Both the position numbers and the translations under genes were made by a program. This document shows, in pieces, positions 7,777-47,379 of a stretch of 64,000 nucleotides of DNA. The notes below the pieces were generated by a model. That model was not told the DNA's origin and did not search any database. It was given only the letters and a program-made list of their open reading frames with translations. The number at the start of each line of letters is the position of its first letter. Position 1 is the stretch's first letter. The stretch is from Escherichia phage arall, in the sequence record MN850584.1. One strand, 5' to 3'.

Positions 7777-8034
7777 TTAAGAATGCATAAAATCTTCTTC
7801 AGGGCAGGTTGAGAGATAAGAGATGCACGTTGGGACAACAACAACATTATCTTTAAGGTTTGCAACCAAGCCTTTTGTGATTCCAGCCACTGCCCCGTTA
7901 ATATCTGCTTGACGGATACCAAAACCTTGTTGTGCGGATAGATAACAAAATCCCTCACCTTTCTGTTGATTATTATTGAAGTAATAAACGTAGTGCATCA
8001 TAAAATGGTCTTTAACGATTTGTTCTGTGGTCAT
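7777..8034 (-). CDS. hypothetical protein (last gene of - block)
   Basis: 85 aa; RBS AGGAG upstream on - strand. Confidence 0.5.
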   Translation of the reverse strand: MTTEQIVKDHFMMHYVYYFNNNQQKGEGFCYLSAQQGFGIRQADINGAVAGITKGLVANLKDNVVVVPTCISYLSTCPEEDFMHS

Positions 8035-8047
8035 AATATTCTCCTAT

Positions 8048-8068
8048 AAGAAAAGGGGCTTTCGCCCC
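8048..8068 (-). terminator. rho-independent terminator
   Basis: GGGGCTTTCGCCCC hairpin with U-tract on - strand; same hairpin recurs at 19344 and 32435. Confidence 0.55.
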
Positions 8069-8077
8069 TTGGTCAAG

Positions 8078-8890
8078 TTACTTAGTCAAATGATCTTCTA
8101 TCATTTTTATGAAAGCAGGATTGCTAAAAGCATCTGCTGCCTTTTCTCTGTAAACAAAGACTCCTCTATCTTCGTAAAGAAGAGTTTCTTCGTAATTAAT
8201 TCCTGGGTTAACAACAATCATTTTTGTACCCATATTAAGTGCAGGGAATAATTCCCAATTAAAATTGATAACTTGGTTTGAACATCCTACTACAACAACC
8301 AAATCTTGCATGGTCAAAGTATCAAACAAGTGAGCCATATCTGCATACAAAGGTGCAGCCTCACCAAAAAATACAACATTAGGCTTCACCCAGTTATAAT
8401 CATCTATGTTTATACTATTGTAACCAATATCTACCAGTGTTTTGTAATCTCCAGGATGCATACGGTAAACTACTTCAGGAAGATACCCGTGCACGTGAAT
8501 AACAGAATCCCTGTCCACACCTGCTCGCTCTAGTAGATCATCAACGTTTGTTGTCAAGTTTACTACTTGGTTAGGATATTCCTTAAACCACTTTGCTATT
8601 TGAATATGTGCAGCATTAGGTTGTACATCTTTAAGCTCAACACGTCTTTTGTTATAAAATTCGTGTGTTTTGGCATACAAGTCCATACCGTTCTCGTCTA
8701 CACCACCGACCACTGGAAGATCTGGAGATGTTCTCACACGATAACCTGCTTGGAAAGCTCCAATATCGCAGACCTCTTCTAAGTCATATTCTTCCCATAA
8801 GGCACGACCACTATCTGTGTCTGTTCGGAACGTTCGAATCCCACTGTCTGCACTTAAACCTGCGCCACTAACAAAAATTACTCTTCGCAT
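8078..8890 (-). CDS. Sir2-family (sirtuin-like) NAD-binding protein, no zinc-ribbon
   Basis: 270 aa; GAGLSADSGIRTFR (GAGIS/GIPxFR), TTNVDDLLERAG (TQNID-like), VIHVHG (catalytic His), VVVGCS; no CxxC pairs. Confidence 0.8.
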   Translation of the reverse strand: MRRVIFVSGAGLSADSGIRTFRTDTDSGRALWEEYDLEEVCDIGAFQAGYRVRTSPDLPVVGGVDENGMDLYAKTHEFYNKRRVELKDVQPNAAHIQIAKWFKEYPNQVVNLTTNVDDLLERAGVDRDSVIHVHGYLPEVVYRMHPGDYKTLVDIGYNSINIDDYNWVKPNVVFFGEAAPLYADMAHLFDTLTMQDLVVVVGCSNQVINFNWELFPALNMGTKMIVVNPGINYEETLLYEDRGVFVYREKAADAFSNPAFIKMIEDHLTK

Positions 8891-8901
8891 TCAATATCCT
8901 C

Positions 8902-9447
8902 TTAGTAATCATCATCCCAAGAAGATGCGTCGTAACGCTCTTCCTCTTCGAAATCCCAATTAATTTCTACTCCAAAATCTAAAAACAATTTAACAATGTT
9001 TTCTGTAGAGTAGTATTTATCATAAGCATTAGCTAGTTCCCAATACTTGTCACTCAATTTTTTATATTTAGGATCATTATAGTCATAATCTACTTTATAA
9101 CCATAATCATACATCTCTTGTTTAGCTTTAAGCATAGCTTCTGGTGTAAGAAGATTAGGGAACGGACGATTTCTTTCTTTTAACTTAGAAGCAATCCAGT
9201 TTGCAACATTCGCCACTTCACCATCTCGATTATCACCTAAACAACTTGCATAATCTCCATCTTCGTAAGTGCCTAAATCCCCACAGACCACATGTACAAT
9301 ACTTGAATACGATCCACACGTTTCACAATCTGAAAAAGTGTCTACTGTTGTAATATCAATAGATAAAACTGGTAAAGCCATAGCTTCTTTCACACAAGCC
9401 TCCTCATATAATAACATATCATCAAAACCCATATATCCTCCACACAA
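8902..9447 (-). CDS. hypothetical protein, acidic C-terminus
   Basis: 181 aa ORF. Confidence 0.55.
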   Translation of the reverse strand: MCGGYMGFDDMLLYEEACVKEAMALPVLSIDITTVDTFSDCETCGSYSSIVHVVCGDLGTYEDGDYASCLGDNRDGEVANVANWIASKLKERNRPFPNLLTPEAMLKAKQEMYDYGYKVDYDYNDPKYKKLSDKYWELANAYDKYYSTENIVKLFLDFGVEINWDFEEEERYDASSWDDDY

Positions 9448-9449
9448 AT

Positions 9450-9473
9450 AAAGCCCCTGATTGGGGCTTTGGT
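9450..9473 (-). terminator. rho-independent terminator
   Basis: hairpin AGCCCCTGATTGGGGCT with U-tract on - strand. Confidence 0.5.
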
Positions 9474-9486
9474 TAAGTTTTATGGA

Positions 9487-10098
9487 TTATACCAGACTTT
9501 TAAGGTACTTGTCAAGGGCTTCTTGATCACCTTGACAAACATAGCAACGGAAGTCTTGAGCAGAAGGTTCTTTGTCCTCGTCCCAATCCCAATAAACAGT
9601 ACCTTTATAACGTGAACCTGGGAACTCGAAATATGCCACATGAGTAATATGGTGTGGGCCACCCCAAAATTCTGTAAAAGTAAATTGAGGATACGCTGCT
9701 TTAACTGTATTCTCAAACCAAGTTTTACGATCTAATGCTTCGTTTATAAAATAAGCATGGCGTTCCATTTCATCCCAATCTTTCCAAACGCATTTTTCAT
9801 CCAGAGAAAAAACAAAATCTTCACTGTTAAAATCGTCTGTATCTGATTCCAAAATATCATAATCATGTGCACTAGGTATCCACCATCCAGCTTCTAATAG
9901 TGCTTTTGCAGGTACAAAACCTTTTTCAGCATATTGATCAAATTCTTTTACTCTACGTACAGTGCAGTATTCATCTTCACCACCAATGTCCAGCAGACAA
10001 GCACCTTTGCGTCTTGCTGCAAGACCATGTGTATCAAAAACTACAACACTACCTTCACCATCTTCACGATCTACTTGATATGCAACTTTTTGAGTCAT
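9487..10098 (-). CDS. hypothetical protein
   Basis: 203 aa ORF. Confidence 0.55.
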   Translation of the reverse strand: MTQKVAYQVDREDGEGSVVVFDTHGLAARRKGACLLDIGGEDEYCTVRRVKEFDQYAEKGFVPAKALLEAGWWIPSAHDYDILESDTDDFNSEDFVFSLDEKCVWKDWDEMERHAYFINEALDRKTWFENTVKAAYPQFTFTEFWGGPHHITHVAYFEFPGSRYKGTVYWDWDEDKEPSAQDFRCYVCQGDQEALDKYLKSLV

Positions 10099-10221
10099 AT
10101 TACCCCCAATGTATATGGGAAATTAACCAAAAGATAAATTCCCAAAAACACCAACCAAGAAAAGTTAATGGAATTATAAAAGCTATCAGAGCAGTCTTCC
10201 AGCCTTTCCACAATGTTTCCA

Positions 10222-11211
10222 CTATTCCTCCATACATTTAAGAATATGTGCAATGACAGGTATAGTCCAACCGTTGCCTAACATCTTATATGCTTGTGTG
10301 TTACTACTCACTTTAAAGTAATCATCTGGAACACCTTGTAAGCGGCAACACTCTTTAACCGTTAACTTTCTGTAATGTACGCCTTCACTCAATTTTTCAA
10401 AGGCATCTAGATATCTTCCAGGTGGAATGTAAGCTAATAGTACGTCTTTCGGCACAGTCGTGAGGCAACGAGTTTTTTCACTGTCCTGAACTTCCAAACA
10501 ATGTACCAAACGATCAGTTTTAGATGTACTACGTTTGCCATTCTCATTAATTCTACGCCCATATATTGCTGCCGGATAAAAAACCAGTTGTCTGCGACTC
10601 TTTTCAAAATACTGTTCTATATTACCACCTTTGGCATAATTTGCATCTATGCAATAAGCCTTATCTCTGTCTACAATACTATCATCTTCAATAATATCTT
10701 GCAACACTTCATTGGTAATCTCCCAGGGTTTTATTTCCCAGTTGCACCAGTATAAACGTTGTCTATTCTGTGCCGTGAAATCTGCGGAGTTAATGAATAC
10801 GGGATCAACACCTAAGTAACTTGTGATCACGTTTTCCCACTCCACTTTCATCTTAACGTTTTCAAGCATGAACTTAACATTAGGATTAAACTTTTTAATA
10901 TGTTCAAGAATTTCAACATATTCGAAGAATAGCTTAGATCGCGGATCTTGAAAGTTCAAACCCTTACCAGAAGAAGAGAAGCCTTGACACGGACTACCAC
11001 CTAACAAAAGATCAATTTCTCCCCACGGGATATCCCATTCTCTCCATTTTGTAACATCACCTAACTGAATAATATCTGGAAAATTTGCTTGGCTTTCAGC
11101 TATGGCAAATTTGTCTAATTCTGAAGCATAATATGTATCTACTTCAATACCTGCACTTTTTAGCGCAAGCATTCCTCCTGACATACCATCAAAAAGACTT
11201 AAAACTTTCAT
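10222..11211 (-). CDS. DNA (cytosine-5)-methyltransferase
   Basis: 329 aa; LFDGMSGG (motif I), GGSPCQGFS (catalytic PCQ), MLENVK (ENV). Confidence 0.85.
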   Translation of the reverse strand: MKVLSLFDGMSGGMLALKSAGIEVDTYYASELDKFAIAESQANFPDIIQLGDVTKWREWDIPWGEIDLLLGGSPCQGFSSSGKGLNFQDPRSKLFFEYVEILEHIKKFNPNVKFMLENVKMKVEWENVITSYLGVDPVFINSADFTAQNRQRLYWCNWEIKPWEITNEVLQDIIEDDSIVDRDKAYCIDANYAKGGNIEQYFEKSRRQLVFYPAAIYGRRINENGKRSTSKTDRLVHCLEVQDSEKTRCLTTVPKDVLLAYIPPGRYLDAFEKLSEGVHYRKLTVKECCRLQGVPDDYFKVSSNTQAYKMLGNGWTIPVIAHILKCMEE

Positions 11212-11213
11212 TA

Positions 11214-11624
11214 TTACTTCTTCTCCTTAACACTAGCTGGTAATTCTGCCTTGAGGCAGAAGTTTAAACGGTAAGCCTCATTCTCATTTAAAAGTACAGA
11301 TTCACACGATAACCAGAACAAGAGATCCTCAATACCAGGGCTGTTAAGCCAACAGTGCAGAAGAGAATGTTGTTCTATATCAATGTAATTTAGTAACAAG
11401 GCTTGTAAGGCGTAACTAGTTCCTGTCGTTTTTGCTTTTTCAAGGATGATATTGTGTTTACTAACAACTTTCTTCTTAAGACCAAACCATTTATTAACAA
11501 CAACAGTCTCTTCTTGTAGTTGTTTTCTTATTTTCTCACATTCTTTAACTACAATCTGCATCTTATCCACTGCTGATTGAAGTTGTTCTTTTGTTGGGTT
11601 TACAAAATAGTCACTATAGTACAT
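11214..11624 (-). CDS. hypothetical protein
   Basis: 136 aa ORF. Confidence 0.55.
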   Translation of the reverse strand: MYYSDYFVNPTKEQLQSAVDKMQIVVKECEKIRKQLQEETVVVNKWFGLKKKVVSKHNIILEKAKTTGTSYALQALLLNYIDIEQHSLLHCWLNSPGIEDLLFWLSCESVLLNENEAYRLNFCLKAELPASVKEKK

Positions 11625-11682
11625 GCTAATCTTCTCCTCTTCTGTTTTTCTGTAGTTTATTCGAAAAAACTGGTGTTGTCAA

Positions 11683-11708
11683 CAAAAAACCCGCCGAAGC
11701 GGGTTTAT
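11683..11708. terminator. terminator hairpin
   Basis: CCCGCCGAAGCGGG hairpin flanked by A-run and T-rich run. Confidence 0.5.
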
Positions 11709-11709
11709 A

Positions 11710-11967
11710 TTATTCTACAGGAACTTCTTCACCAAGAGAAACTTCTAAACGGAATGCTTTACTTTCAATACACTCACTACCTTTTAGAAAATCAAATTGC
11801 ACTATAGACTGACTTAATAGGATAGATAGAATCACATCACAATCTTCACTAGGAGCTAGATGTTTGTATTCTTCCTTCAAGGTAACATCATAAAAACATA
11901 AATCCCCTACTCCTAGTTCATCCCATCCTTCCCACGCATCTACAAAGTTAAACTCTAAACCTTTCAT
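11710..11967 (-). CDS. hypothetical protein
   Basis: 85 aa ORF. Confidence 0.5.
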   Translation of the reverse strand: MKGLEFNFVDAWEGWDELGVGDLCFYDVTLKEEYKHLAPSEDCDVILSILLSQSIVQFDFLKGSECIESKAFRLEVSLGEEVPVE

Positions 11968-12488
11968 ACAACCTCCTCGTAGTTGTTATTGTGTTTTACT
12001 GTCTCAACATACAATAAAGATTCCATCTGTAATACATTACCAGAAATAATAAACCCGTAAGCCATTTCAGATGTGTCTATATCATATGCCCCGTCTTCCG
12101 GTTTAGCAAAGTGTAAAACTATTTCATCTGGGTTTTCTTCATCCCATAGTTTAGAAATTTTCCGAACCAGAATGTTAGCTAAAATAGTTGACATTCGGGA
12201 TAAAGCTGTATCCTCGTATCTTTTAAAACCTAACCAATAGAGGTTAAGAATTTCTACTTCTTCTTGTGTTAAGTTTTTGTCTAAAGTAATCAGATCTGTA
12301 GGATACATCGTTTTTGTTGAACCTACTGTTACAAAACCTGGAGTGTTATGAAAAACAATCTTAACTTTATCACGTATAAAGTTTAAACCTTGTGCCTCAA
12401 CTATATATTGTATTGTAGGTACAATATCGTTTGTTACATCAATAAAACTATCTTTAATGACGCTTATATTATTTCTGGACAAGACCAT
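11964..12488 (-). CDS. hypothetical protein
   Basis: 174 aa ORF. Confidence 0.55.
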   Translation of the reverse strand: MVLSRNNISVIKDSFIDVTNDIVPTIQYIVEAQGLNFIRDKVKIVFHNTPGFVTVGSTKTMYPTDLITLDKNLTQEEVEILNLYWLGFKRYEDTALSRMSTILANILVRKISKLWDEENPDEIVLHFAKPEDGAYDIDTSEMAYGFIISGNVLQMESLLYVETVKHNNNYEEVV

Positions 12489-13050
12489 TCTCCTCTAAAA
12501 TAGGCTTAATAAATTCGAAAATTTGTTTTTTACTTTTATCTCGAATATTAAAACAAGGAACATTAAACTTTTTAGCCAACATCCAAGCTGTTCTTGTACC
12601 ACCTAAAGGATCTCCATTTTTATCTGTATTTGCACAAGCTAAAAGAAAACAAGATGGTTTTGGATTCTCAAGATCTCTTCCAAGAACTTGGTGGATATTT
12701 CTTTGATGTAATTTTTTAGCACCTTGAGATAATCTGTCCCAAGCTGGATGCAATTCTTTTGCATATTGCAAGGTTAGAGCATAGTTTACACTATCTGGTC
12801 TGTCAAGAACAATAACCTCTCCCTCTATTTCATTACCTTTAAACGAGAGCCAAGGGATGTATATTTCTTTCTTTGTATTGTTCCCACTATCATATACCCC
12901 GCATTCAAATGCGGAATCTGCACCTTCTGCTTTACCAGATCGCAAAATGAACCATGTAGATAACCATTTTGCAACAGATACCATAGTATCCCATTCTTCG
13001 TCTGTAATATCTCTGCTACCAACACCTGTGTAGAATAAATCGCTCATGGT
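12469..13050 (-). CDS. Rossmann-fold SLOG/DprA-like nucleotide-binding protein
   Basis: ORF track trimmed to M28 (RBS AAGGAGAA); YTGVGSR...RSGKAEGADSAF resembles the GxGxR...G(A)xGxD signature of Smf/DprA/LOG folds. Confidence 0.45.
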   Translation of the reverse strand, partial: TMSDLFYTGVGSRDITDEEWDTMVSVAKWLSTWFILRSGKAEGADSAFECGVYDSGNNTKKEIYIPWLSFKGNEIEGEVIVLDRPDSVNYALTLQYAKELHPAWDRLSQGAKKLHQRNIHQVLGRDLENPKPSCFLLACANTDKNGDPLGGTRTAWMLAKKFNVPCFNIRDKSKKQIFEFIKPILEENGLVQK

Positions 13051-13057
13051 TTTCTCC

Positions 13058-13378
13058 TTAACAAGTAATATTGGGAGTAACAATTGGATTAACAATTGGA
13101 GTAATAGGGTACGTAAACCAAGGGCTTCCAATTTCCCAAGGATAATAAGGTCTACGAGGATCGTATGGAGGAGTTACTTCAGGCTTTTTCCAAATCTCCG
13201 CTAATTGTTTCTTCCATTTATCCCTTGCTGTCTCATTATCTTCATCCAACTGTTCATCATTATCTTTTATTTCTGGTTTTGGAAATAAAAGCTCTTTGAC
13301 TAATTCAACATCTTCCGTCTCAATAGTAGTTTCTTTCGTAAGTTCTCCTACTGTTTCTTTAATTGTGATTTTATACAT
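13058..13378 (-). CDS. hypothetical Pro/Glu-rich protein
   Basis: 106 aa ORF. Confidence 0.5.
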   Translation of the reverse strand: MYKITIKETVGELTKETTIETEDVELVKELLFPKPEIKDNDEQLDEDNETARDKWKKQLAEIWKKPEVTPPYDPRRPYYPWEIGSPWFTYPITPIVNPIVTPNITC

Positions 13379-14124
13379 TAGTCCTCCTCTAAAGTAGAAT
13401 AAAATTGTAACGTATTTGAATCATCAAAATATGCAAAGGTTAAATTACCATTGAAGCAAGATCCTGTGTCCATATATACCCTATTACTGCTAATCACAGG
13501 TTTAGGAACATAAGAATGCCCGTGAAATACATAATCTACTCCTGAAACCCTAGGAAGAAGAATCCCTTCAAGTGCGCAATCTATCATATCACGATCCCAC
13601 ATTAAAGATTCTGTGAATTGAGAAACTTGCTCTTTATTCATATTCAAACAAAATGGCAAAACTTCTGTCACTGGTAAATGTTCCAAAACTGAAGGATACC
13701 CACCGTGAATAAAGCCTAGTTTCATATTACGATAATTGACAACAAGTACAACAGGTAAATCTTCTAGCATCAAAGCAAGAGCAGTTGCACCCTCTTCTCC
13801 ACACTCGTCTAGAACTGTATGGCCTCCGTTCTGAAACCAACATTCGTAATATCGTCTATCACCTTCTAACAACCCTTTAATCATCATATCTTCATGATTT
13901 CCACGAATACCATAACGATTTAGCTTTCTGGTGAATTCAACAACACAACGAAAATTCTGCTTGCCGCGATCTGTAAGATCTCCTAAAGATACAACAACAT
14001 CTTGATCTCGGATACCTAAAGTATTAACACCTTTCTGGTACAAATCAAAGCAACCATGTAAATCACCAATAATAAACAGGTCTTGATCATCTTTTACACT
14101 AATTTCTTGATATACTAACATCAA
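13378..14124 (-). CDS. Ser/Thr protein phosphatase (calcineurin-like metallophosphoesterase)
   Basis: 248 aa; GDLHGC, GDLTDRG, GNHEDM motifs. Confidence 0.85.
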   Translation of the reverse strand: MMLVYQEISVKDDQDLFIIGDLHGCFDLYQKGVNTLGIRDQDVVVSLGDLTDRGKQNFRCVVEFTRKLNRYGIRGNHEDMMIKGLLEGDRRYYECWFQNGGHTVLDECGEEGATALALMLEDLPVVLVVNYRNMKLGFIHGGYPSVLEHLPVTEVLPFCLNMNKEQVSQFTESLMWDRDMIDCALEGILLPRVSGVDYVFHGHSYVPKPVISSNRVYMDTGSCFNGNLTFAYFDDSNTLQFYSTLEED

Positions 14125-14447
14125 CTCTCCTCAAAATCCATAAGTATAAAGATATTAACTTTACCTTCTATATTATGTTCTACAACAAGATCTGCAAATT
14201 CTTTGTAGGCTTTTTCTTCTATTTGTTCAATGTGAGACGCTACATCTTTGTATATAGCGTCACCATCTACTTTAACAAGGAGGAATAGAGATCTTACTTC
14301 AATCTCTTTATTTTTACGGGGTAGAAAATCGACGGCTTCTTGTATACGCCAGCCGAGATACCCTGGAGTCCTTTGAATATCCTCCAAATGACTTTCTAAG
14401 ATTTCCCTTCCTTTGTCTATTAAAGCCTGTTCTGTCGTTATTTTCAT
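14121..14447 (-). CDS. hypothetical protein
   Basis: 108 aa ORF. Confidence 0.5.
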   Translation of the reverse strand: MKITTEQALIDKGREILESHLEDIQRTPGYLGWRIQEAVDFLPRKNKEIEVRSLFLLVKVDGDAIYKDVASHIEQIEEKAYKEFADLVVEHNIEGKVNIFILMDFEES

Positions 14448-14457
14448 CCCCTTCTCC

Positions 14458-15030
14458 TTAATGTGTTAATGAAACTGCGTAGCTAAACACAGGTTCAGAT
14501 ATTACATCGGCTACAGTAATAAAAACGTCTTCGTCTTGAGTTGTTTCTACACGACATACAGTTACACCATTCACCACGAATTCAACGCAATGTGGAATAT
14601 CTTCACAAACGAAGGTAGTGTAAGTAACACCCAAAGCATCATACAAAGATTTAACAGTGTTTGCAAGTGCCGCAGTTTCTTCTTTTTCTGAGACAATGAA
14701 TGCTGTAACAACAAGATTGTTTGCATAGTTTAGACTGTCCTCTATAGCCAATGATTTACAAGGTAGTAATGCAAAATATTTACCTGGTTTAATCAGACCT
14801 GCTTCCCATTGATTCAAAATTGCCTGGGATGGTTTAGTAATATAAAACAGATTTTCACTTGGGTTATCAATATTACTTCTGGCGATACAACGTGAAGGAT
14901 TATTATTATCAAATACATGATCAAAATCTACACAAACAGGTAAACTGAAAGGTGTGAATTTTTTACCTAATAATCCTATGGCTGATAATATGTTTGCTGT
15001 GCTTATCTTCCCGTTAAAAGCTAAACGCAT
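14458..15030 (-). CDS. hypothetical protein
   Basis: 190 aa ORF. Confidence 0.55.
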   Translation of the reverse strand: MRLAFNGKISTANILSAIGLLGKKFTPFSLPVCVDFDHVFDNNNPSRCIARSNIDNPSENLFYITKPSQAILNQWEAGLIKPGKYFALLPCKSLAIEDSLNYANNLVVTAFIVSEKEETAALANTVKSLYDALGVTYTTFVCEDIPHCVEFVVNGVTVCRVETTQDEDVFITVADVISEPVFSYAVSLTH

Positions 15031-15041
15031 ATTTAACTCCT

Positions 15042-15245
15042 TTAACTAGCAACCGTAACTTCCGAACTTTCTTCTTTCGTACTGTCTACGATATGCCTGG
15101 TGGCAATATACGAGACTTGCCAGTTACCATCTGGTGTAGTCTCAATAAGTACCCTATCTACTTCGAGAAAATGCAAAAATTCAACCATCGCTCGCTTCGA
15201 TAGGAATTGTTTTTTAACAGTCTCCTCAAAAGATTGAACTGCCAT
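15042..15245 (-). CDS. hypothetical protein
   Basis: 67 aa ORF. Confidence 0.45.
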   Translation of the reverse strand: MAVQSFEETVKKQFLSKRAMVEFLHFLEVDRVLIETTPDGNWQVSYIATRHIVDSTKEESSEVTVAS

Positions 15246-15254
15246 GTTTCCTCC

Positions 15255-15917
15255 TTATTTAATATTCAATTTTGCACAAAGACGTTGTACCGCTTTGGCA
15301 TCGAACAAACTCCCACGAATAGTTCTCTTTCCTGATTCATTCAGATGTTTTGCAATCGTCATATATGGCGTTTTACAAGCTCTGTATGCAACTAAAGAAT
15401 CTTTTAAAGAAAGCGCAAACTCTTTTGAGCGTTTTGCTTCTTCCGTTTTCGTATAATCTGTTCTTTTGTATTTAGGGTTTGCTGCACCAAGAAGCGTTCC
15501 CTTCGCTTTTGCTACTTTAAGGCTCTTCTTAACACGATCAGATATTGCACGAGCCTCTTCTTCTGCCAGAACTGCTAAAATATTTATTATCATATTTTCA
15601 GCGGAGGGCATAGTTGCTATTCGTACATTAATCATCTCTAACAAGGTTGCAACAGAAGCTGTGTTACGTCCAAGACGGTCAACCTTAGCAACAACAAGTG
15701 TAGCACCTGTTTCTTTGCAAAGATTAACAGCTTTTACAAGCTCTCTACGTTGCTTCCAATCGCCTTTACCCGAATAAAACTCTGCAAAGCTACCTACAAT
15801 AGTATAATTTTCTTGTGAATCCAGGAAGCGTTGGATATCTGCTTCCTGTGATTCTATACCATACTGGTTGCCTTGTTGTTTCTTCTTAGAAAGTCGATGA
15901 TACAGTACAAACTTCAT
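15255..15917 (-). CDS. serine recombinase (resolvase/invertase family)
   Basis: 220 aa; N-terminal YHRLSKKKQ (catalytic Ser), LVVAKVDRLGRN, ISDRVKKSLKVAKAKG; C-terminal HTH-like region. Confidence 0.75.
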   Translation of the reverse strand: MKFVLYHRLSKKKQQGNQYGIESQEADIQRFLDSQENYTIVGSFAEFYSGKGDWKQRRELVKAVNLCKETGATLVVAKVDRLGRNTASVATLLEMINVRIATMPSAENMIINILAVLAEEEARAISDRVKKSLKVAKAKGTLLGAANPKYKRTDYTKTEEAKRSKEFALSLKDSLVAYRACKTPYMTIAKHLNESGKRTIRGSLFDAKAVQRLCAKLNIK

Positions 15918-15974
15918 AATACCCTCCTGTTCTGTTACAGGAAGTATGCACTACCTTAACGTTAAAGTCAACAG

Positions 15975-16190
15975 TTAAGTAGTGGTAATATCATCTTCTT
16001 GAATATCAGGATCAACTTCTGCAAAGATAGCTTCTACAGGAATTTCTTCACCTGCTATTCTAGAAAGAAGCACTGAACCAATAGCTTTTGCGTGTTCTTC
16101 GGATTCCGCATAAACATTAGTCCCTGTGTCTTTTTTCTTAGTTTCGTTAAAATATACCAGATAGTAATTGTATGCCATTATTCTTCCCAA
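15975..16190 (-). CDS. hypothetical protein
   Basis: 71 aa ORF. Confidence 0.45.
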   Translation of the reverse strand: MGRIMAYNYYLVYFNETKKKDTGTNVYAESEEHAKAIGSVLLSRIAGEEIPVEAIFAEVDPDIQEDDITTT

Positions 16191-16429
16191 TCGTTGTTAC
16201 GAGCATTTTCAAGAACCTTGACAACTTCTGCATACTCTACAGCTAAACCAGCACACACTTCAGCTTGTTTTGCAATTGCTTGTTTAAAGAACATAGCGAT
16301 TGCAACACTCTGTGTTGTGTGAATGTTATCTGCTTTAGTTGATACGTGAAGATCAAAATCTTCTTCATCAAAGGTGAGTTCCATAGTAACAATAAATTTC
16401 TCGGTCATAAAAATGCTCCTCTTAAACAA
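16178..16429 (-). CDS. hypothetical protein
   Basis: 83 aa ORF. Confidence 0.45.
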   Translation of the reverse strand: MFKRSIFMTEKFIVTMELTFDEEDFDLHVSTKADNIHTTQSVAIAMFFKQAIAKQAEVCAGLAVEYAEVVKVLENARNNDWEE

Positions 16430-16931
16430 AATAGAAAGGTTGAGTTAAACCCAGCCTGTTTTTTGGGTCGTAGACGTACCAAGCATATGCTGTCTTATCA
16501 GTACCACCTGCAACAAAAGATGGTCGTTCAGAAAGAACAATCAAATTTGTTGGTGGATTCTGTTTATGGAATTCCCTTCGTTTAATAGACTCTAGGAAAC
16601 CAAGACGCAACAAGTATATGCAAACGTCTGCTTCTTTTAAGCTCTTTTGCAAGAACTCAAGTGCAAGTTTGAATGGGGGATTTGTGATTATAATATCCGG
16701 CTTAGTATACCATTCATGGTTAAAATAATCTTTCCCTTCTTCTAACTCACAATATTCTGATCCTTCTGGAAAATGTTGATAAATTGCAGCAGCAGCGCCT
16801 TTACACGGTTCTGCAAAAATAAAACCTTCTTCTTTAAGGTTATTAAAATCTATTACACTAAATAATGCATTTATACATTTTTGTGGAGTAGGATAGTAAT
16901 CAGTTGGTGGACGATCATACTTATTTGCCAC
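16422..16931 (-). CDS. small DNA N6-adenine methyltransferase-like protein
   Basis: 169 aa; DYYPTP and TNPPF (motif IV of amino-methyltransferases). Confidence 0.65.
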   Translation of the reverse strand: MANKYDRPPTDYYPTPQKCINALFSVIDFNNLKEEGFIFAEPCKGAAAAIYQHFPEGSEYCELEEGKDYFNHEWYTKPDIIITNPPFKLALEFLQKSLKEADVCIYLLRLGFLESIKRREFHKQNPPTNLIVLSERPSFVAGGTDKTAYAWYVYDPKNRLGLTQPFYFV

Positions 16932-17349
16932 TACTTAAAATCTCCTCTTTTGTGATTTCAGGGTCTTCTTCAAAAACCATAATATCTCTTAAGAACGTTA
17001 ATTCTTCCATAGATACTGGTATTGTATCTTCTTCTGTTTTTCGTTTACATAAATCGTCAAGAAAGTTTTTAAAGTTTTCTGACAAATCGTAAAATTTCAA
17101 CAGTTGATAATCACAGGAGGAGATCCTATCTAGTTCTAACATTCTTTCTAAGATATTTTCTGTGTTGCCATACAGCACACGAACTTCTCCGAAAGGGTTG
17201 ACTGAATATTGTGAAGTTCTGAACCATCCCTTTTTAGATACAGTGTAACGCTGTTCTGCTAAACTTTCAATAAAATTTTTAGCTCTTTTACAGTTTTGTT
17301 CTAAAGAGTAGTAGGCTTTTTCTACAAAGGTTACAGGTACTGGTAACAT
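16921..17349 (-). CDS. hypothetical protein
   Basis: 142 aa ORF. Confidence 0.5.
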   Translation of the reverse strand: MLPVPVTFVEKAYYSLEQNCKRAKNFIESLAEQRYTVSKKGWFRTSQYSVNPFGEVRVLYGNTENILERMLELDRISSCDYQLLKFYDLSENFKNFLDDLCKRKTEEDTIPVSMEELTFLRDIMVFEEDPEITKEEILSSGK

Positions 17350-17359
17350 ATCTCCTCCT

Positions 17360-17380
17360 AATAAACCCCCTTGAGGGGGT
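17360..17380 (-). terminator. rho-independent terminator
   Basis: hairpin CCCCCTTGAGGGGG with U-tract on - strand. Confidence 0.5.
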
Positions 17381-17390
17381 TTGTGTTAGA

Positions 17391-18044
17391 TTAATTATCA
17401 GAGGATACTTTATCAAGTTTTTCAGAGACTGTCAATACTTTTTCTTGTGATTCTTTCATTTCTGCTAAAATACTTTCAGCTTCATCACTATCAGGATCAC
17501 CAGTCAACAGCATACTAATTAGTTGCTCCTTGCTGAAGTTCAGAATATCTTCCGCTGTTAGTTCCAGTTGTTCTTCGATCTCTTCAATAAAAGTTTCACC
17601 ACCGGAAAAAGCATCTCGTAGTTTTGCAACTTCCATCGCTTCTTCTGGAGTTGCCCCTGCATCTAAAGCTGCTAAAGCAAAATCTGCCCCACTACCAACA
17701 GCATAATAATCTTCAGTTAAAGGATATGCTCGCGTTGGATTATTACCCTCGTGCATATAAATTTTACCGTCTGGGTGAACAACCAATGCCACAAACTCTT
17801 CATCTTCTTTATCAGGATCTGACTGGATCACCAAACCTGGGATTGTCTCTTGTGCTGCTTGGCATTGTAAGTTTTGTTCGAACCAAGAAAAGAAAGTCAG
17901 GATAGAAGACAGACGTCCTGCACCACCAACAAGGTAATCCCCAATTTTACGCACTTTCTTGAAATTTAAAGTGTCTACACGACTACCTACTGTTACTTTA
18001 CCATCAGATAGAATTTTGTTATGTGTTGCAATAATTGTTGTCAT
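17391..18044 (-). CDS. HslV-like (proteasome beta-type Ntn-hydrolase) peptidase with acidic C-terminal extension
   Basis: 217 aa; N-terminal MTTII (Thr nucleophile), KKVRKIGDYLVGGAG, GSGADFALAA parallel E. coli HslV MTTIV...KKVRR...GFAGG...GSGG. Confidence 0.6.
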   Translation of the reverse strand: MTTIIATHNKILSDGKVTVGSRVDTLNFKKVRKIGDYLVGGAGRLSSILTFFSWFEQNLQCQAAQETIPGLVIQSDPDKEDEEFVALVVHPDGKIYMHEGNNPTRAYPLTEDYYAVGSGADFALAALDAGATPEEAMEVAKLRDAFSGGETFIEEIEEQLELTAEDILNFSKEQLISMLLTGDPDSDEAESILAEMKESQEKVLTVSEKLDKVSSDN

Positions 18045-18535
18045 TGTACTTCCTCCTGTAGTGTTTTAAGGACTGCTTTACCACCGCTTACATATTTACG
18101 GAGGTAATCAATAGCTCTTAGTGTTTCTTTATCCACAAGAATTTTATTAGTTCTTGTCAATGGATGATTCAGTAAGTCACTGCAATTTCTTACTAACATA
18201 GATTTCTTGTGAAAGATACTGCTAAGAAAAAGAAGTTTAGAATCTTCTTCATCAATCAGGAGTAATTCTGAATTAGACCCAGCTACATTTATTATACACT
18301 CAAACAAGCCTTCTTGACTATCAGATAATTCCTGGTAATATTTAGTTAGCCAATCCTCTCCTTTTAACCAACTAAAAAACATCTGAACTTTTTGCAAAGT
18401 TGTCATGTTCTCTAAACGAAGAGATATTTCTTTTTCAATCTTGTCAATATAAATCTGTCTAAACTCATTCGGCTTAACTAAGCCAGCTTGATAGCATTCA
18501 TCAATACCATTGCGATCAATCTCAATTAGCGTCAT
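18041..18535 (-). CDS. hypothetical protein
   Basis: 164 aa ORF. Confidence 0.55.
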   Translation of the reverse strand: MTLIEIDRNGIDECYQAGLVKPNEFRQIYIDKIEKEISLRLENMTTLQKVQMFFSWLKGEDWLTKYYQELSDSQEGLFECIINVAGSNSELLLIDEEDSKLLFLSSIFHKKSMLVRNCSDLLNHPLTRTNKILVDKETLRAIDYLRKYVSGGKAVLKTLQEEVQ

Positions 18536-18571
18536 TTAACCTCCATAATAGGCATCCTTGCCTTGTAATTA

Positions 18572-19324
18572 TTAATATACTTCCGTGATGAACTGAGACA
18601 AACGGGAACGTTGGTTATCAGCAGTTGTCATTTCAACATAACCAATAAAATCTACAATAGCTTCCCTTTCTCCTTCTTCGTTAATAGGAACAACACGATC
18701 TAACAAATCACCTAACCCGTTAGCTCTTCGTTTAATTGCATATGTTTGATTAACATCGCCCATAATGACAATACGTGTATTAAGACCTGCTCGCTCAAGG
18801 AGAAGTTTTACTGTATTTGGTGACATAAGTTGAACTTCATCAATAAGAATAATACTGTTATCCCACGTAGCACCTAGTGCATAGTTTGGAATATTAAGTT
18901 CAATTTTGCCACTTGCAATATCGTTTTCCAATTTATTTGCAGTCATAAACTGTTGGAAAATTCTTTTAGTTGATTCGTAGTGTGCTGCTAGTTTATCAGT
19001 CTTATCTCCAGATAAGAAACCAATTTGATCATCACCTACTTCTGTCGGGTTTTTAAGGAAAATCAACTTTCTGAAATCACCAGCTTTAAGCATTTGCAAT
19101 GCTTTCCATAGTGCTGTTGTCGTTTTTCCTGTTCCTGCTGGGGCATTAACAATGGTTAAATCATTCCAAACCATGCTTCTTACAATAGCTTCTTGATTCC
19201 CAACAGGGGTAAATTCATCAAGACGGTAATCATCATTTCCTACTGCTTTAGCCGCATAACGACTGGCACGTTTGTCATCATTGGCTGCTGATTGACGACG
19301 AGCCTTTGCGGTTTTATTTCCCAT
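18572..19324 (-). CDS. phoH: PhoH-like ATPase
   Basis: 250 aa; Walker A NAPAGTGKTT; PhoH-like organisation. Confidence 0.85.
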   Translation of the reverse strand: MGNKTAKARRQSAANDDKRASRYAAKAVGNDDYRLDEFTPVGNQEAIVRSMVWNDLTIVNAPAGTGKTTTALWKALQMLKAGDFRKLIFLKNPTEVGDDQIGFLSGDKTDKLAAHYESTKRIFQQFMTANKLENDIASGKIELNIPNYALGATWDNSIILIDEVQLMSPNTVKLLLERAGLNTRIVIMGDVNQTYAIKRRANGLGDLLDRVVPINEEGEREAIVDFIGYVEMTTADNQRSRLSQFITEVY

Positions 19325-19337
19325 GTTTGCACTCCTT

Positions 19338-19358
19338 ATAAAAGGGGCTTTCGCCCCT
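19338..19358 (-). terminator. rho-independent terminator
   Basis: GGGGCTTTCGCCCC hairpin with U-tract on - strand. Confidence 0.55.
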
Positions 19359-19362
19359 TTGT

Positions 19363-19863
19363 TTAGTTATAAGCGTCTAATGTTCCAGTTTTAAGTACCT
19401 GAATTACACGCTCTGCGCGATTAGGCGTTTGGCGATACCATTTACTTTTACGTAAATTTATAGAGGCTTGAGTATAATATGAATTACTCACTAAAGTCAA
19501 GCTATTTTTGAAAGATTCTGCACCTTTCAATCCCATTTGAAATACCATATTGATAATAGCCATTTTACGATTAGGACTTACTTTATCGTAAATAGGAGAT
19601 AATATGGTACTTGAATGGATTTGTTGTATCGCTTTCTTTACGTCACTTTCAAAGATTCTTCTAGCTTCCGCTTCAGTAATAACTCCATTGGTTTTTCTAC
19701 CTACTAAGTTATCAAGAATGCGTATAGCTTCTGCTTTATCTTTGCGTTTTGTCAGAAGGTGTCCAATACCAACTGTCCAATACCCTTCGGTATCAGGATA
19801 TACAGTTAGCTTTAGTCCTTCATCAAAACGTAACATATCAAACACATCAACTACTTTAGCCAT
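19363..19863 (-). CDS. T4-type lysozyme (endolysin)
   Basis: 166 aa; MLRFDEGLKLTVYPDTEGYWTVGIGHLL parallels T4 e lysozyme N-terminus. Confidence 0.9.
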   Translation of the reverse strand: MAKVVDVFDMLRFDEGLKLTVYPDTEGYWTVGIGHLLTKRKDKAEAIRILDNLVGRKTNGVITEAEARRIFESDVKKAIQQIHSSTILSPIYDKVSPNRKMAIINMVFQMGLKGAESFKNSLTLVSNSYYTQASINLRKSKWYRQTPNRAERVIQVLKTGTLDAYN

Positions 19864-20023: not shown

Positions 20024-20290
20024 TTACTCCGCAATCTGAGCCATGAATTCACGTAGTTCAGAAAAACCTCCTACGTGGGTTAGCTGTTCACCATCTTCCA
20101 CAAAAATCTGAGGAAATGTGCGTGGTAGAACACCTGTTTTCTCTAAAACCAGATTCTGAATCTGATCTAAAGAATAGTCTTCATCTAAGGTAAGATATTT
20201 AAAATCCTGTTCACGCTGTTCTAGTAGAATCTTAGCGTTAGTGCAGAAAGGACAATTTGGTTTACCGTAGATAATAAAATTCATTTTCAC
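20024..20290 (-). CDS. glutaredoxin/NrdH-like redoxin
   Basis: 88 aa; CPFC active site. Confidence 0.8.
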   Translation of the reverse strand: MKMNFIIYGKPNCPFCTNAKILLEQREQDFKYLTLDEDYSLDQIQNLVLEKTGVLPRTFPQIFVEDGEQLTHVGGFSELREFMAQIAE

Positions 20291-21117
20291 TCCTTGTTTA
20301 AAAGTATAGTTAAAGTTCTTACAATACCGCTATCAACACTTCGCGGATTTAAAGTAGGATCTGTTTTTAAATAAGATGTTGCTGGTCTGACTGCTTTGGA
20401 ATTATAGGTTGAAGCAGATACAGGATTAACTGTAACAGATAAATCTATAACAAGAAATATCTTTCGTGCAAAATCATACCAAGAAATATAATCTGCACCT
20501 GCATAGTGTACAACTTTACTATTTACACCATCTTTTACAAGTTTAAAAATTGTTTCTGCAAGATCAGGTGCATAAGTAGGACATGACAAATGATCACATA
20601 CTACATTAAATTCTTTTTGACCACCGTTGTAGCGTTCCAACATAGTTTTCAAAAAGTTATGTCCAAATTCACTATAAACAGAAGCTGTTCTGATAATAAG
20701 TGCTGTAGGACAAACTGTTTGTACTAAAGTTTCACCTAATTGTTTACTGTAACCGTAGGTGTTCAAGGGGTTTGTTTTACTATCTTCTGTGCCAGCAACA
20801 TGCCCATCAAAAACATAGTCTGTTGAAATATGTACAAACTGTATCAGTAAATCATTACATGCTTTGGCAATGTTTGTTGCACCGTATGCATTAACATTTA
20901 TACAGGTGTTAACATCTTCTTCAGCTTTATCTACTGCCGTGTAAGCCGCACAATTCACAACAACATCAGGCACGTGCTGTACAAGACTATTCATAACATC
21001 TTTAAAGTTGGTAATGTCTATATCACTTGCTTCAATCAAAATAACATCTTCGGGCGCAACTTTTGCCAAAGACTGTCCTAATTGACCTTTTGAACCAAAG
21101 ATTAAAAATTTTGTCAA
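20287..21117 (-). CDS. rmlD: dTDP-4-dehydrorhamnose reductase
   Basis: 276 aa; N-terminal Rossmann GSKGQLG; position in rml cluster. Confidence 0.75.
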   Translation of the reverse strand: MTKFLIFGSKGQLGQSLAKVAPEDVILIEASDIDITNFKDVMNSLVQHVPDVVVNCAAYTAVDKAEEDVNTCINVNAYGATNIAKACNDLLIQFVHISTDYVFDGHVAGTEDSKTNPLNTYGYSKQLGETLVQTVCPTALIIRTASVYSEFGHNFLKTMLERYNGGQKEFNVVCDHLSCPTYAPDLAETIFKLVKDGVNSKVVHYAGADYISWYDFARKIFLVIDLSVTVNPVSASTYNSKAVRPATSYLKTDPTLNPRSVDSGIVRTLTILLNKE

Positions 21118-21668
21118 AATATGATCTCCTTTAGTGTTTTGGCTTGCTGATCTTTTTGTGACAAGATAGGTTTAAAATTAATATCATTAAAGATTAAATC
21201 AAAACCCCAATCAATATTGATATCTGGATCATTCCACGCAAGACTACACTCTGAAGTCGGATCGTAATATTCTGTACATTTATATTCAAAATCAGCAATG
21301 TCACTAATCACAACAAAGCCATGAGCGAAACCAGGAGGAATCCAAAATTGTGTTTTATTCTTTTCAGATAAGAGAACACCTACCCATTCTCCAAATGTTG
21401 GACTACCAACCCTAATATCTACAGCAACATCATAAACTTCACCACGAACACAACGTACTAACTTCCCTTGTGGGTTTTTCTTTTGAAAATGAAGCCCACG
21501 TAGAACTCCTCGAATAGAACGTGAATGGTTATCTTGGACAAAGTTTTGTTTACCTATGTATTGATCATATAAAGCCTGATTAAAACTTTCTAAGAAAAAA
21601 CCACGTTCATCTCCGTAAACGTCAGGTTGAATGATCAACAAATCTTCGATTTTTGTTGCTTGAATCAT
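21114..21668 (-). CDS. rmlC: dTDP-4-dehydrorhamnose 3,5-epimerase
   Basis: 184 aa; cupin-type YGDERGFFLESF. Confidence 0.75.
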   Translation of the reverse strand: MIQATKIEDLLIIQPDVYGDERGFFLESFNQALYDQYIGKQNFVQDNHSRSIRGVLRGLHFQKKNPQGKLVRCVRGEVYDVAVDIRVGSPTFGEWVGVLLSEKNKTQFWIPPGFAHGFVVISDIADFEYKCTEYYDPTSECSLAWNDPDINIDWGFDLIFNDINFKPILSQKDQQAKTLKEIIF

Positions 21669-21680
21669 TTAATTTCCCCT

Positions 21681-22550
21681 TTATTTTAATTTAAGTAAAT
21701 ACTTACCGTAGTCTGTTTTACTTAAAACCTCTCCAGAACTTTTTACAGAGTCTAAAGTAATCCATTCATTTTTAAAAGCAATCTCTTCCAGGCATGCAAC
21801 CTTCATACCTTGTTGCTTTTCTATTGCATGAACAAATTGAGATGCTTCCATAAGACTTTCATGTGTTCCTGTATCCAGCCAAGTGAAACCTCTTCCTAGT
21901 TTACAGACACGTAAAGCCTTTTCTTTCCAGTACATCTCATTTATATCTGTAATCTCTAACTCCCCTCTAGCAGAAGGTTTAACGCTTTTAGCTTTCTGTA
22001 CAACAGAATTATCGTAAAAGTACAAGCCTGTGATTGCATAGTTGCTTTTTGGTGCTTTTGGTTTTTCTTCAATACTCACCACTGTACCTTCAGAATCAAA
22101 CTCAACAACACCAAATCTTTCAGGATCATTTACGTGATACCCAAAAATATTAGCTCCACCATTCTTTTCAATATGTTCTTTAGCAGAATCTAAAATGCTA
22201 CCAAAACTCTGACCAAAGAATAAATTATCACCTAGCACAAGTGCTACAGAATCTTCACCAATAAAGTTCTCACCAATAATAAACGCTTCTGCTAAACCTC
22301 TTGGGCTATCCTGTATTGCATACTGTAAGGAAATACCAAAAGAAGAACCATCACCTAGAAGATTTACAAAATTAATTTGATCTTCTGGTGTTGTAATTAT
22401 TAGTATTTCCCTAATTCCAGAAAGCATTAGGACAGAGAGTGGATAATAAATCATAGGCTTATCATAAATTGGTAATAGTTGTTTACTAACCCCTTTAGTA
22501 ACTGGGTAAAGTCTTGTTCCACTACCACCTGCTAAGATAATACCTTTCAT
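21681..22550 (-). CDS. rmlA: glucose-1-phosphate thymidylyltransferase
   Basis: 289 aa; [18 protein letters not shown] signature. Confidence 0.9.
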
Positions 22551-22558
22551 ACTCCTCC

Positions 22559-23548
22559 TTAAACTTTATTTTCCCACCACTCTTTGTTATCTACATACCA
22601 ATCAATGGTTGAATAAAGTTTTTCTTCAAATGTGCCTTTAGCTTTCCACCCTAATTCCTTTTCAATCTTATAAGGATTCACTTCGTATCTTAAATCATGT
22701 CCAGGTCTATCTGTAACCATTTCAATGAGGCTACAAGCATCTGTTTCAGATGGATACACCGCATCCATATAATCACAAATCATATAGATTACATCAATAT
22801 TAGTTCTAGGGTTTCTGCTCCCAATATTATATGTTTCTCCAGATTTGCCTTTAGTTACTACTAGGTGTAATGCTTCTGCGTGATCGTCAACGTATAACCA
22901 ATCTCTTACTTGAAGACCATTGCCATAAACAGGGATTGGTTTATGCATCAAGATATTTGTTATCGTTTTAGGTATTAGTTTTTCTGGATGATGATATGCT
23001 CCAAAATTATTTGAACAATTTGTTATAACTGTCGGAATACCATAAGTACGATGCCATGCTCTTACCAAATGATCGCTTGCAGCTTTAGATGCAGCATATG
23101 GACTACTTGGTTTATAAGGATTCTGTTCTGTAAACGGATAATCCCCTTCTTCCATATCACCATACACTTCATCTGTTGAAATATGATGGAACATTTTAAG
23201 ATTTGATTTATCTCCCATTAAACGAACAGCTTCTAGAAGATTAAATGTTCCAACAATATTTGAATTTATAAAAACACTCGGTGATGCTATTGAATTATCT
23301 ACGTGACTCTCTGCTGCAAGATGCATTATATAATCTGGATTAACATCTGCCACAATCTTAGCAGTTAACTGCGCATTTGTCAAGTCAACACGACAAAACT
23401 TTACATTAGGTGTTTCTGATAAATTTCTAGGGTCTGAAGCGTAACCCCATTTATCTATAACGTAAATATCATTCTTAGTATTTTTAGCCAGGAAACGAAC
23501 TACTGCACTTCCAATAAAGCCTAAACCACCTGTTACTAAGTATTTCAT
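22559..23548 (-). CDS. rmlB: dTDP-glucose 4,6-dehydratase
   Basis: 329 aa; TGGLGFIGS Rossmann, YAASKAASD (YxxxK). Confidence 0.9.
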
Positions 23549-47045: not shown

Positions 47046-47121
47046 GGTTCCATAGCTCACTGACGAGAGCGCACACCTCATAAGTGTCGAGGGCAGGGAT
47101 TGTAACCCTGGGGAACCACCA
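47046..47121 (+). tRNA. tRNA-Met/Ile2 (anticodon CAT), non-canonical T-loop ATTGTAA
   Basis: hand-folded cloverleaf: acceptor GGTTCCA/GGGAACC (one A.G), D-arm GCTC-ACTGACGA-GAGC, anticodon loop CTCATAA, T-stem CAGGG/CCCTG, CCA encoded. Confidence 0.55.
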
Positions 47122-47152
47122 TTTAAAAGGAGGTGCTATGCATCTCCTATAT

Positions 47153-47238: not shown

Positions 47239-47240
47239 AC

Positions 47241-47346: not shown

Positions 47347-47379
47347 TCAATTTAAATAGTAATTTTAGTAAAAAATATC

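Follow-up and report, generated by a model that had tools for sequence, protein, structure and literature searches.

The locus considered here raises the question of what two methyltransferase genes, neither accompanied by a recognisable restriction partner, do for the phage that carries them. The window, by which we mean the whole 64-kb stretch of DNA analysed, belongs to a phi92-like lytic myovirus of the genus Justusliebigvirus (subfamily Stephanstirmvirinae), namely phage arall or a near-identical relative; bases 8000-19500 share 99.6% identity with Escherichia phage inny and 98.3% with phage phi92. The GC content is ~37%, transcription runs leftward across ~8 to 43 kb of the window, and both methyltransferase genes are among the early and auxiliary genes read in this direction. 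The catalytic motifs of amino- or C5-methyltransferases occur in the 64-kb window in two reading frames only, ORF A, a 329-aa C5 methyltransferase (10222-11211, minus strand), and ORF B, a small methyltransferase of 169 aa (16422-16931, minus strand). The first-pass annotation had headed its entry with the coordinates of ORF A alone and named ORF B in its text. Both genes are already known as methyltransferases and their anti-restriction reading is standard and in print. Thus gp043 and gp056 of phi92 were both annotated 'DNA methyltransferase' in 2012, the BASEL record of EmilieFrey lists a 'Dcm-like C5 cytosine methyltransferase' and a 'putative N6 adenine methyltransferase', many further records carry similar annotations, and the orphan methyltransferases of the Justusliebigvirus phage BME3 are said, in a paper of 2025 and without experiment, to protect against host restriction.

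The first of the two genes, ORF A, comprises the following features.

10222..11211, minus strand: gene of 329 aa, assigned to the C5-cytosine DNA methyltransferases by PF00145, TIGR00675, PADLOC and PDB matches
10984..10992, minus strand: motif IV codons P74-C75-Q76, with the predicted catalytic cysteine of a C5 methyltransferase (from the translation)
10855..10863, minus strand: motif VI codons E117-N118-V119 of a C5 methyltransferase (from the translation)
11223..11228, minus strand: ribosome-binding site AAGGAG, upstream of the ATG of the C5 methyltransferase (from the sequence; phi92 carries a ribosome-binding site annotation at the equivalent place)

The product matches PF00145 with an E-value of 1.1e-43 (150.3 bits, cut-off 22) over its full length, residues 1-327 aligning with profile positions 1-322 of 324, and it likewise matches TIGR00675 (141.1 bits, cut-off 100.65), the PADLOC type II methyltransferase model (E 7.5e-46) and, among the sequences of the PDB, DNMT3A/B, M.HaeIII and M.HhaI. 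All six motifs checked are intact, these being I (F7xGxxG), IV (P74-C75-Q76), VI (E117-N-V), VIII (Q148xRxR), IX (R281xLTxxE) and X (G312-N-G). Judged by its sequence, ORF A is by family a bona fide, canonical C5-cytosine DNA methyltransferase, and the complete enzyme with PCQ and ENV motifs that a first-pass annotation had placed here is borne out. The protein is an exact match of phage arall QHR67598.1 ('cytosine methyltransferase'), with phi92 gp043 and EmilieFrey bas61_0190 as orthologs, and is 97.9-100% identical across all nine phi92-like records listed. The phage records matching it at 95% identity or above number 54, all of them Justusliebigvirus; beyond these, identity falls to ~50%, in Vibrio phage ICP1 and jumbo coliphages.

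In common with the orphan phage C5 methyltransferases of the Dcm/M.HaeIII/M.HhaI superfamily, ORF A is a stand-alone, full-length enzyme in which the checked landmarks are present, but for its variable region (approximately residues 160-275) no similarity could be detected, either to E. coli Dcm or to any solved structure. Membership of the E. coli Dcm/M.EcoRII subfamily is not supported by sequence: the corresponding model, NF007772, scores 29.9 bits where 710 are required and covers residues 280-328 only, and the Dcm structures 3lx6 and 3me5 match at residues 273-328 only. Since the variable region is unlike that of Dcm, the public 'Dcm-like' label does not establish a specificity for CCWGG.

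The genomic slot occupied by ORF A is itself subject to turnover. In Phapecoctavirus the syntenic position holds a different and very divergent C5-like protein of 227 aa (motifs FDGSG, PPCT and ENP), and the two Stephanstirmvirinae genera share the flanks of the slot (identities of 69% for gp041 and 24% for gp044). A divergent protein of this 227-aa type is also present in rV5-like phages, a statement that concerns its presence and not the slot. Because the C5 gene has been replaced while its flanks were kept, it can be regarded as a replaceable cassette, which fits a role in the struggle against host defences, where turnover of this sort is typical of the genes concerned.

The second gene, ORF B, is less easily placed. 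Its features are these.

16422..16931, minus strand: minimal amino-methyltransferase gene, 169 aa, predicted N6-adenine core (phrog_799, motif order, structure model)
16671..16682, minus strand: motif IV codons N84-P85-P86-F87, predicted adenine-binding catalytic motif (translation, family alignment)
16942..16947, minus strand: ribosome-binding site GAGGAG, upstream of the GTG start of ORF B (from the sequence; phi92 annotates AGGAG at the equivalent place)

The upstream gene (16921-17349) contains the GAGGAG element within its 3' end and overlaps ORF B by 11 nt. The protein is an exact match of arall QHR67611.1, a 'hypothetical protein', and its orthologs are phi92 gp056 and EmilieFrey bas61_0203. 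It matches phrog_799, labelled 'DNA methyltransferase', at E 1.2e-56 and the PADLOC type II methyltransferase model at E 6e-5. A third 'DNA methyltransferase' annotation circulating in Justusliebigvirus is erroneous and owes its spread to a PHROG label; with one PHROG label of this genome shown to be wrong, that of phrog_799 was checked independently. No Pfam or NCBIfam model is matched above threshold by the single sequence or by the family profile, and the models N6_Mtase, Eco57I, EcoRI_methylase, Dam and MTS give nothing at E <= 0.01, with weak matches around motif IV only. Against the PDB the single sequence has no match and the family profile sub-threshold matches only, Erm and METTL5 being matched as weakly as the DNA methyltransferases. 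Among 52 family members the most frequent sub-threshold Pfam match is EcoRI_methylase (47/52), MTS, the rRNA methyltransferase small domain, is matched by 23/52, and further such matches to N6_Mtase, Dam and Eco57I fall around motif IV. The identification of ORF B as a methyltransferase rests accordingly on phrog_799, on the conserved order of its motifs, and on a structure model with its fold matches, so that it is a prediction from sequence and model.

These 52 members were aligned from 224 homologs, the yield of a search of 5.8 billion proteins, and extend down to ~42% identity. In the alignment N84-P85-P86 is invariant, F87 nearly so, and T15, E41, P42 and R136-P-x-F are likewise invariant. 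The conserved elements comprise Y13-P-T15-P16, E41-P42-C43-x-G45, E62 and D68-Y69 in the N-terminal part, then T83-N84-P85-P86-F87, F93, K96-S97 and R136-P137-x-F139, and finally a C-terminal cluster, D145/Y149/W151/D155. The resulting order, X (YPTP), I (EPCxG), acidic II and III, IV (NPPF) and so through VIII, is that of the gamma-class amino-methyltransferases. A target-recognition domain is absent, as only ~30 residues follow motif VIII (RPSF, 136-139) and ~80 follow motif IV. The AlphaFold2 model built on the 52-homolog alignment (pLDDT 90.5, pTM 0.87) has the class I Rossmann methyltransferase fold. Foldseek comparison of this model with the PDB returned both DNA enzymes (CamA, M.TaqI, the type I HsdM subunits of StySJI and EcoKI, and PacII, all with probability 1.00) and RNA enzymes (PH1948/METTL5, KsgA/Dim1/Erm and TrmM), the E-values ranging from 1e-4 to 5e-3 and the TM-scores from 0.45 to 0.63. 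The lowest E-values belong to the DNA enzymes CamA and M.TaqI, the highest TM-scores to the putative RNA methyltransferase PH1948 (TMq up to 0.63). With two exceptions, lmo1582 and DNMT2, nearly all the best matches are N6-adenine enzymes. Sequence and model together therefore give good support to the prediction that ORF B is an N6-adenine amino-methyltransferase core. The first-pass description of a 169-aa amino-methyltransferase with an NPPF motif agrees with the invariant N84-P-P, the Rossmann model, phrog_799 and the N6-adenine fold matches; its designation of both proteins as DNA methyltransferases holds for the C5 enzyme and runs ahead of the evidence for the smaller one, whose fold matches DNA and RNA enzymes alike.

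How general is such a minimal enzyme? When the family profile was run exhaustively against 1.84 billion cluster representatives (50% identity clusters), 13,581 relatives were recovered at E <= 1e-3, of which 6,805 also reach E <= 1e-10. Almost all of them stand alone, with lengths of 160-220 aa, and since this size holds family-wide, the absence of a recognition domain is a property of the family and not a truncation. Informative domain fusions were looked for among the longer members and none was found; some members carry a Cys-rich zinc ribbon, inserted directly behind motif VIII or at the C terminus. Among cultured phages the family is represented in 503 records, including Justusliebigvirus, Phapecoctavirus (~87% identity) and the rV5-like Vequintavirus (~48%), and extends to the temperate Vibrio phage Kappa/K139, whose kp12, located between cII and rep, is 36% identical over the full length. 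It is a very large family without a Pfam or NCBIfam model, and we found no experimentally characterised member. Small adenine methyltransferases of phages in which a recognition domain is slight or missing do exist, in the 'Dam' enzymes of the HP1, T1 and VT-2 type, PF05869 (cited in PMC7556043). This model is matched weakly by 13/52 family members (best E 0.0059), none of them above the curated threshold. An identity of the ORF B family with the HP1/K139 'Dam' was rejected, as neither ORF B nor Kappa kp12 matches PF05869, and the two are separate families.

In its motif order, its NPPF, its 'YxTP' motif X and its Rossmann core, ORF B resembles the gamma-class N6-adenine DNA methyltransferases (M.TaqI, CamA, M.EcoRI, the Eco57I family and HsdM), but those enzymes have 325-580 aa with a C-terminal recognition domain, against 169 aa and none in ORF B, and the TM-scores are only 0.45-0.6. 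The small RNA m6A methyltransferases PH1948/METTL5, KsgA/Erm and TrmM are similar to ORF B in size and give its best TM-scores. METTL5 also carries an NPPF-type motif IV and a 'YPT' motif X, as does ORF B. Unlike these translation-related enzymes, however, the ORF B family occurs in a context of DNA replication and modification, and, in contrast to METTL5-type enzymes, no TRMT112-like partner is kept beside the gene.

This context was established by a guilt-by-association survey of 49 non-redundant IMG/VR viral loci and their 148 nearest ORFs. The Pfam families recurring near ORF B homologs include replication protein A (Phage_GPA), AAA and DnaB helicases, VapE and Toprim primases, a gp32-like SSB, 5'-3' exonucleases, Pol A, topoisomerase, and HNH, GIY-YIG and PD-(D/E)XK nucleases. 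DNA modifiers are also represented among the 148 neighbours (N6_N4_Mtase twice, DNA_methylase twice and Mom once), and two metagenomic phage contigs carry an ORF B homolog in the vicinity of another methyltransferase, a 442-aa C5 enzyme or one of Dam type. The 25 most frequent neighbour families include none concerned with RNA modification or translation. A conserved partner protein beside the family was not found in these loci, an ORF of the gp057 type occurring next to it only within the Stephanstirmvirinae. In view of this replication and modification context, a DNA substrate is favoured for ORF B and, from gene neighbourhood only, we regard it as quite probable.

The principal competing possibility is that ORF B is an RNA m6A methyltransferase, whose substrate would be the rRNA of the host or the tRNA of host or phage, much as for METTL5/PH1948, KsgA/Erm or TrmM, and which would tune translation during infection. 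It draws on the superposition with PH1948, on the presence of KsgA/Dim1/Erm, METTL5 and TrmM among the fold matches, on the equally weak profile matches to Erm, METTL5 and DNA methyltransferases, on the MTS matches of somewhat under half of the aligned family members, and on the lack of a DNA target-recognition domain; moreover, the 15 tRNAs encoded in the window would be possible substrates. Set against this are the location of the family in DNA replication and modification modules beside other DNA methyltransferases, the translation-free list of frequent neighbours, the rank of CamA and M.TaqI by E-value, and the predominance of EcoRI_methylase among the weak Pfam matches. On balance we consider an RNA substrate unlikely.

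Whatever the substrate of the smaller enzyme, neither gene forms part of a recognisable restriction-modification system. The neighbours checked were 8902-9447, 9487-10098, 11214-11624, 11710-11967 and 11964-12488 near ORF A, and 16178-16429, 16921-17349 and 18041-18535 near ORF B. No restriction-endonuclease or defence model of PADLOC matches any of them, and in Pfam none reaches the curated cut-off (best E 0.016). A type II restriction-modification system has a cognate endonuclease gene adjoining that of the methyltransferase, and no such gene adjoins either ORF; the recognisable nucleases of the window are HNH homing-type genes only, situated away from the methyltransferase loci. As no restriction or defence model is matched beside either gene, both methyltransferases are orphans without a restriction partner, as had been claimed from the first reading of the sequence, with the caveat that several of their small neighbours are without assigned function. 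Two of these neighbours were considered as obligate partners or hidden restriction genes and rejected: gp057 (16921-17349) matches no model and co-occurs with ORF B only within the Stephanstirmvirinae, and gp044 (11214-11624) likewise matches no model and is kept where the C5 gene has been replaced.

Do these orphans protect phage DNA? Restriction by EcoRI, EcoRV, EcoP1 and BREX is in each case blocked by N6-methylation of adenine in the system's own site. For the BREX system in question, which recognises GCTAAT, N6mA at this sequence was shown in the Durham study. The published plating data concern phages that are >98% identical to the window in the methyltransferase block and carry both genes. 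In the BASEL raw data the phi92-like phages Bas60 PaulScherrer, Bas61 EmilieFrey (98.8% identical to the methyltransferase block of the window) and Bas62 JohannJBalmer gave zero plaques on EcoRI, EcoRV and EcoP1 hosts, with efficiencies of plating of ~0.1-0.4 on EcoKI, ~0.06-0.6 on EcoCFT_II and ~1 on EcoCFT_I. Phages Pau and PATM of the Durham collection, which we equate by name only with the records Paula and vB_Eco_PATM (>98% identical in the block), were restricted ~10^7-fold by BREX; the C5 enzyme of Paula is 100% identical to ORF A. The target of BrxU is modified cytosine, and the phages sensitive to it do not include Pau and PATM. Dense 5mC is accordingly not a product of the C5 enzyme, the argument from BrxU reaching dense modification only. 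A protective effect of either gene is thus nowhere seen in the published plating on near-identical phages. Our literature search found no methylome or biochemistry on either enzyme, and the Durham DNA-modification paper of 2026 covers T-even-like phages only.

These data bear directly on the idea that ORF B methylates adenines in DNA efficiently and without sequence specificity, as M.EcoGII or Hia5 do. Such an activity would explain why a recognition domain is missing from a protein with so few residues beyond motif IV, but it would also block all four of the adenine-sensitive systems named above, each of which completely restricts the carriers, so that ORF B is not an efficient enzyme of this kind. 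The idea is contradicted by the plating, would survive only if the enzyme were very weakly active or poorly expressed, and is in our estimation extremely improbable. Any protection must be limited to motifs outside those tried, and narrow protection against other enzymes is possible. In this respect the proposal that the phage methylates itself to evade restriction is partly supported: its premise, the presence of orphan methyltransferases, holds, and the restriction of near-identical phages by EcoRI, EcoRV, EcoP1 and BREX argues against broad protection.

A defence of another type is written into the composition of the genome. Counts of restriction sites in a complete Justusliebigvirus genome of 148 kb, compared with a maximal-order Markov expectation, were as follows.

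GGWCC: 1 found, 48 expected
GGYRCC: 2 found, 51 expected
AAGCTT: 0 found, 45 expected
CTGCAG: 1 found, 33 expected
AGTACT: 0 found, 22 expected
GGTACC: 0 found, 22 expected
GRGCYC: 0 found, 22 expected
CAGCTG: 0 found, 21 expected
GGATCC: 0 found, 20 expected
GGTNACC: 0 found, 16 expected
CCATGG: 0 found, 14 expected

In the same genome GGCC, CATG and CTAG are strongly depleted, and the pattern repeats in the window alone. Site avoidance is the dominant anti-restriction signature of the genome, in which selection by restriction is visible. Present at the expected frequency are GAATTC, GATATC, AGACC, GCTAAT, CCWGG, GCGC, GCWGC and GATC; that the first four are not avoided agrees with the observed restriction sensitivities. 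For CCWGG, the phi92-like genome has 199 sites against 211 expected (z -0.8), the rV5-like genome 227 against 317 (z -5.0) and Phapecoctavirus 46 against 50. The contrast with the rV5-like genome would fit a phage enzyme specific for CCWGG, and is to be read as a lead and not as a result. We observe that tolerance of CCWGG is equally explicable by the Dcm methylation of the host, and that Phapecoctavirus does not avoid this site either.

Taking these lines together, we think that the two genes probably encode stand-alone SAM-dependent methyltransferases acting on phage DNA, the likeliest role of which would be a narrow, motif-specific protection secondary to the elimination of sites. By analogy with M.HhaI and M.HaeIII, the C5 enzyme would flip its target cytosine, Cys75 of the PCQ motif would attack C6, and a methyl group would be transferred to C5 at a short specific motif. 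ORF B would most likely place N6-methyl groups on adenines at specific sites of phage DNA and, because a separate recognition domain is absent, would have to recognise its sequence through the short C-terminal hairpin and the N-terminal helix. Methylation by both enzymes would then shield progeny DNA, narrowly and by motif, from the cognate restriction enzymes of the host. Besides the published plating and the 15 tRNAs, it weighs against this account that the missing recognition domain makes sequence-specific recognition of DNA by ORF B hard to explain, and that the protein falls below every curated family threshold, with PH1948 as its best superposition by TM-score. Alternatively, the enzymes might methylate phage DNA for other ends, either as a mark of self recognised by a phage nuclease directed at host DNA, or in the regulation of replication, packaging or late transcription. 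The failure to protect against six tried restriction-modification systems or BREX, the prior removal of many restriction sites from the genome and the conservation of ORF B across three genera, suggestive of a housekeeping role, would all be in keeping with such ends. Yet neither a cognate phage nuclease nor a methyl-dependent regulator was found near either gene, the replacement of the C5 gene by another type in sister genera fits a defence-related gene better, and the proposal is speculative; we regard it as distinctly unlikely, and retain narrow protection of phage DNA as the preferred role.

The customary anti-restriction reading of these genes consequently needs to be tempered, since few of the coliphages tested are as sensitive to restriction as the close relatives of this phage, and the visible defence is the avoidance of sites. 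The scientific interest lies in the family of small methyltransferases without a recognition domain, which is huge and has no Pfam or NCBIfam model. Recognition in this family could involve a short C-terminal hairpin, into which a zinc ribbon is inserted in some members, action as a dimer, single-stranded or replicating DNA, or RNA. It is conceivable, and we put it forward tentatively, that its mode of substrate recognition may differ from that of every DNA methyltransferase studied, and that its role may be other than classical anti-restriction.

The position occupied in the window by the 329-aa C5-cytosine methyltransferase (10222-11211, minus strand) is filled in the sister genera by a highly divergent 227-aa C5-methyltransferase-like protein, exemplified by gp059 of the Phapecoctavirus Schickermooser:
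L013:20767-21450, minus strand, 227-aa C5-methyltransferase-like protein, syntenic with window 10222-11211

This putative enzyme, unusually short among C5 methyltransferases, carries the motifs FDGSG, PPCT and ENP and shares 25% identity with the 329-aa enzyme over 128 aa. Since the genes on either side of the differing C5 enzymes are conserved between the window and Schickermooser, the comparison of sequence and gene order indicates that the methyltransferase cassette has been replaced. Six further genes, all on the minus strand, lie in the same block as both methyltransferases:
8078-8890, minus strand, Sir2-family protein
12469-13131, minus strand, DprA-like protein (label from the phi92 annotation)
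13378-14124, minus strand, calcineurin-like phosphatase
15255-15917, minus strand, serine recombinase/invertase
17391-18044, minus strand, HslV/proteasome-like peptidase
18572-19324, minus strand, PhoH-like ATPase

The serine recombinase/invertase is unusual for a lytic phage.

The 90%-identity protein cluster containing the 169-aa small methyltransferase also contains many 142-aa proteins, which are homologs of gp057 (e.g. QXV78333.1) encoded by the upstream overlapping gene (16921-17349, minus strand); their presence looks like either a clustering artefact or the product of read-through or fused gene calls in some assemblies. Within the family alignment (A1, columns about 180-220) a subset of members carries a Cys-rich zinc-ribbon insertion directly after motif VIII (RPxF), while in kp12 of Vibrio phage Kappa (L006:2396-3013) such a ribbon is placed at the C terminus. 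The zinc ribbon is a candidate accessory module by which these small methyltransferases would recognise nucleic acid.

Both the window and the complete Justusliebigvirus genome (L007-L009) show strong avoidance of numerous type II restriction sites, with near-zero occurrence of GGWCC, GGYRCC, AAGCTT, CTGCAG, AGTACT, GGTACC, GRGCYC, CAGCTG, GGATCC, GGTNACC and CCATGG (z -3.7 to -6.8). EcoRI, EcoRV, EcoP1 and BREX sites keep their expected frequency in both, which matches published phage sensitivities. Going by the annotation of its relatives, the window encodes a sugar nucleotide pathway:
about 20287-23548, minus strand, four-gene dTDP-rhamnose-type pathway (epimerases and dehydratase)

DNA glycosylation has been proposed by others as its role, and the BASEL authors point out that these phages are highly restriction-sensitive all the same.

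One further gene bears on the count of methyltransferases:
55736-56227, plus strand, 163-aa ORF, with the portal gene on one side and a 371-aa head gene on the other

In related phages this ORF is labelled 'DNA methyltransferase' (e.g. VivaForever XNS40510), a label originating in phrog_1530. We reject this identity, because the ORF matches the XkdF-type prohead serine protease in Pfam (PF14550, E 2.7e-11) and lacks a methyltransferase motif; the label is a mis-annotation already propagated among its relatives. Methyltransferase tallies published for Justusliebigvirus, such as the 'four CDSs' in BME3, may consequently be too high.

Finally, the window encodes a tRNA cluster:
47046-50101, plus strand, 15 clustered tRNA genes, including two each for tRNA-Met, tRNA-Leu and tRNA-Ser

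Should the small methyltransferase act on RNA, these 15 tRNAs would be possible substrates.
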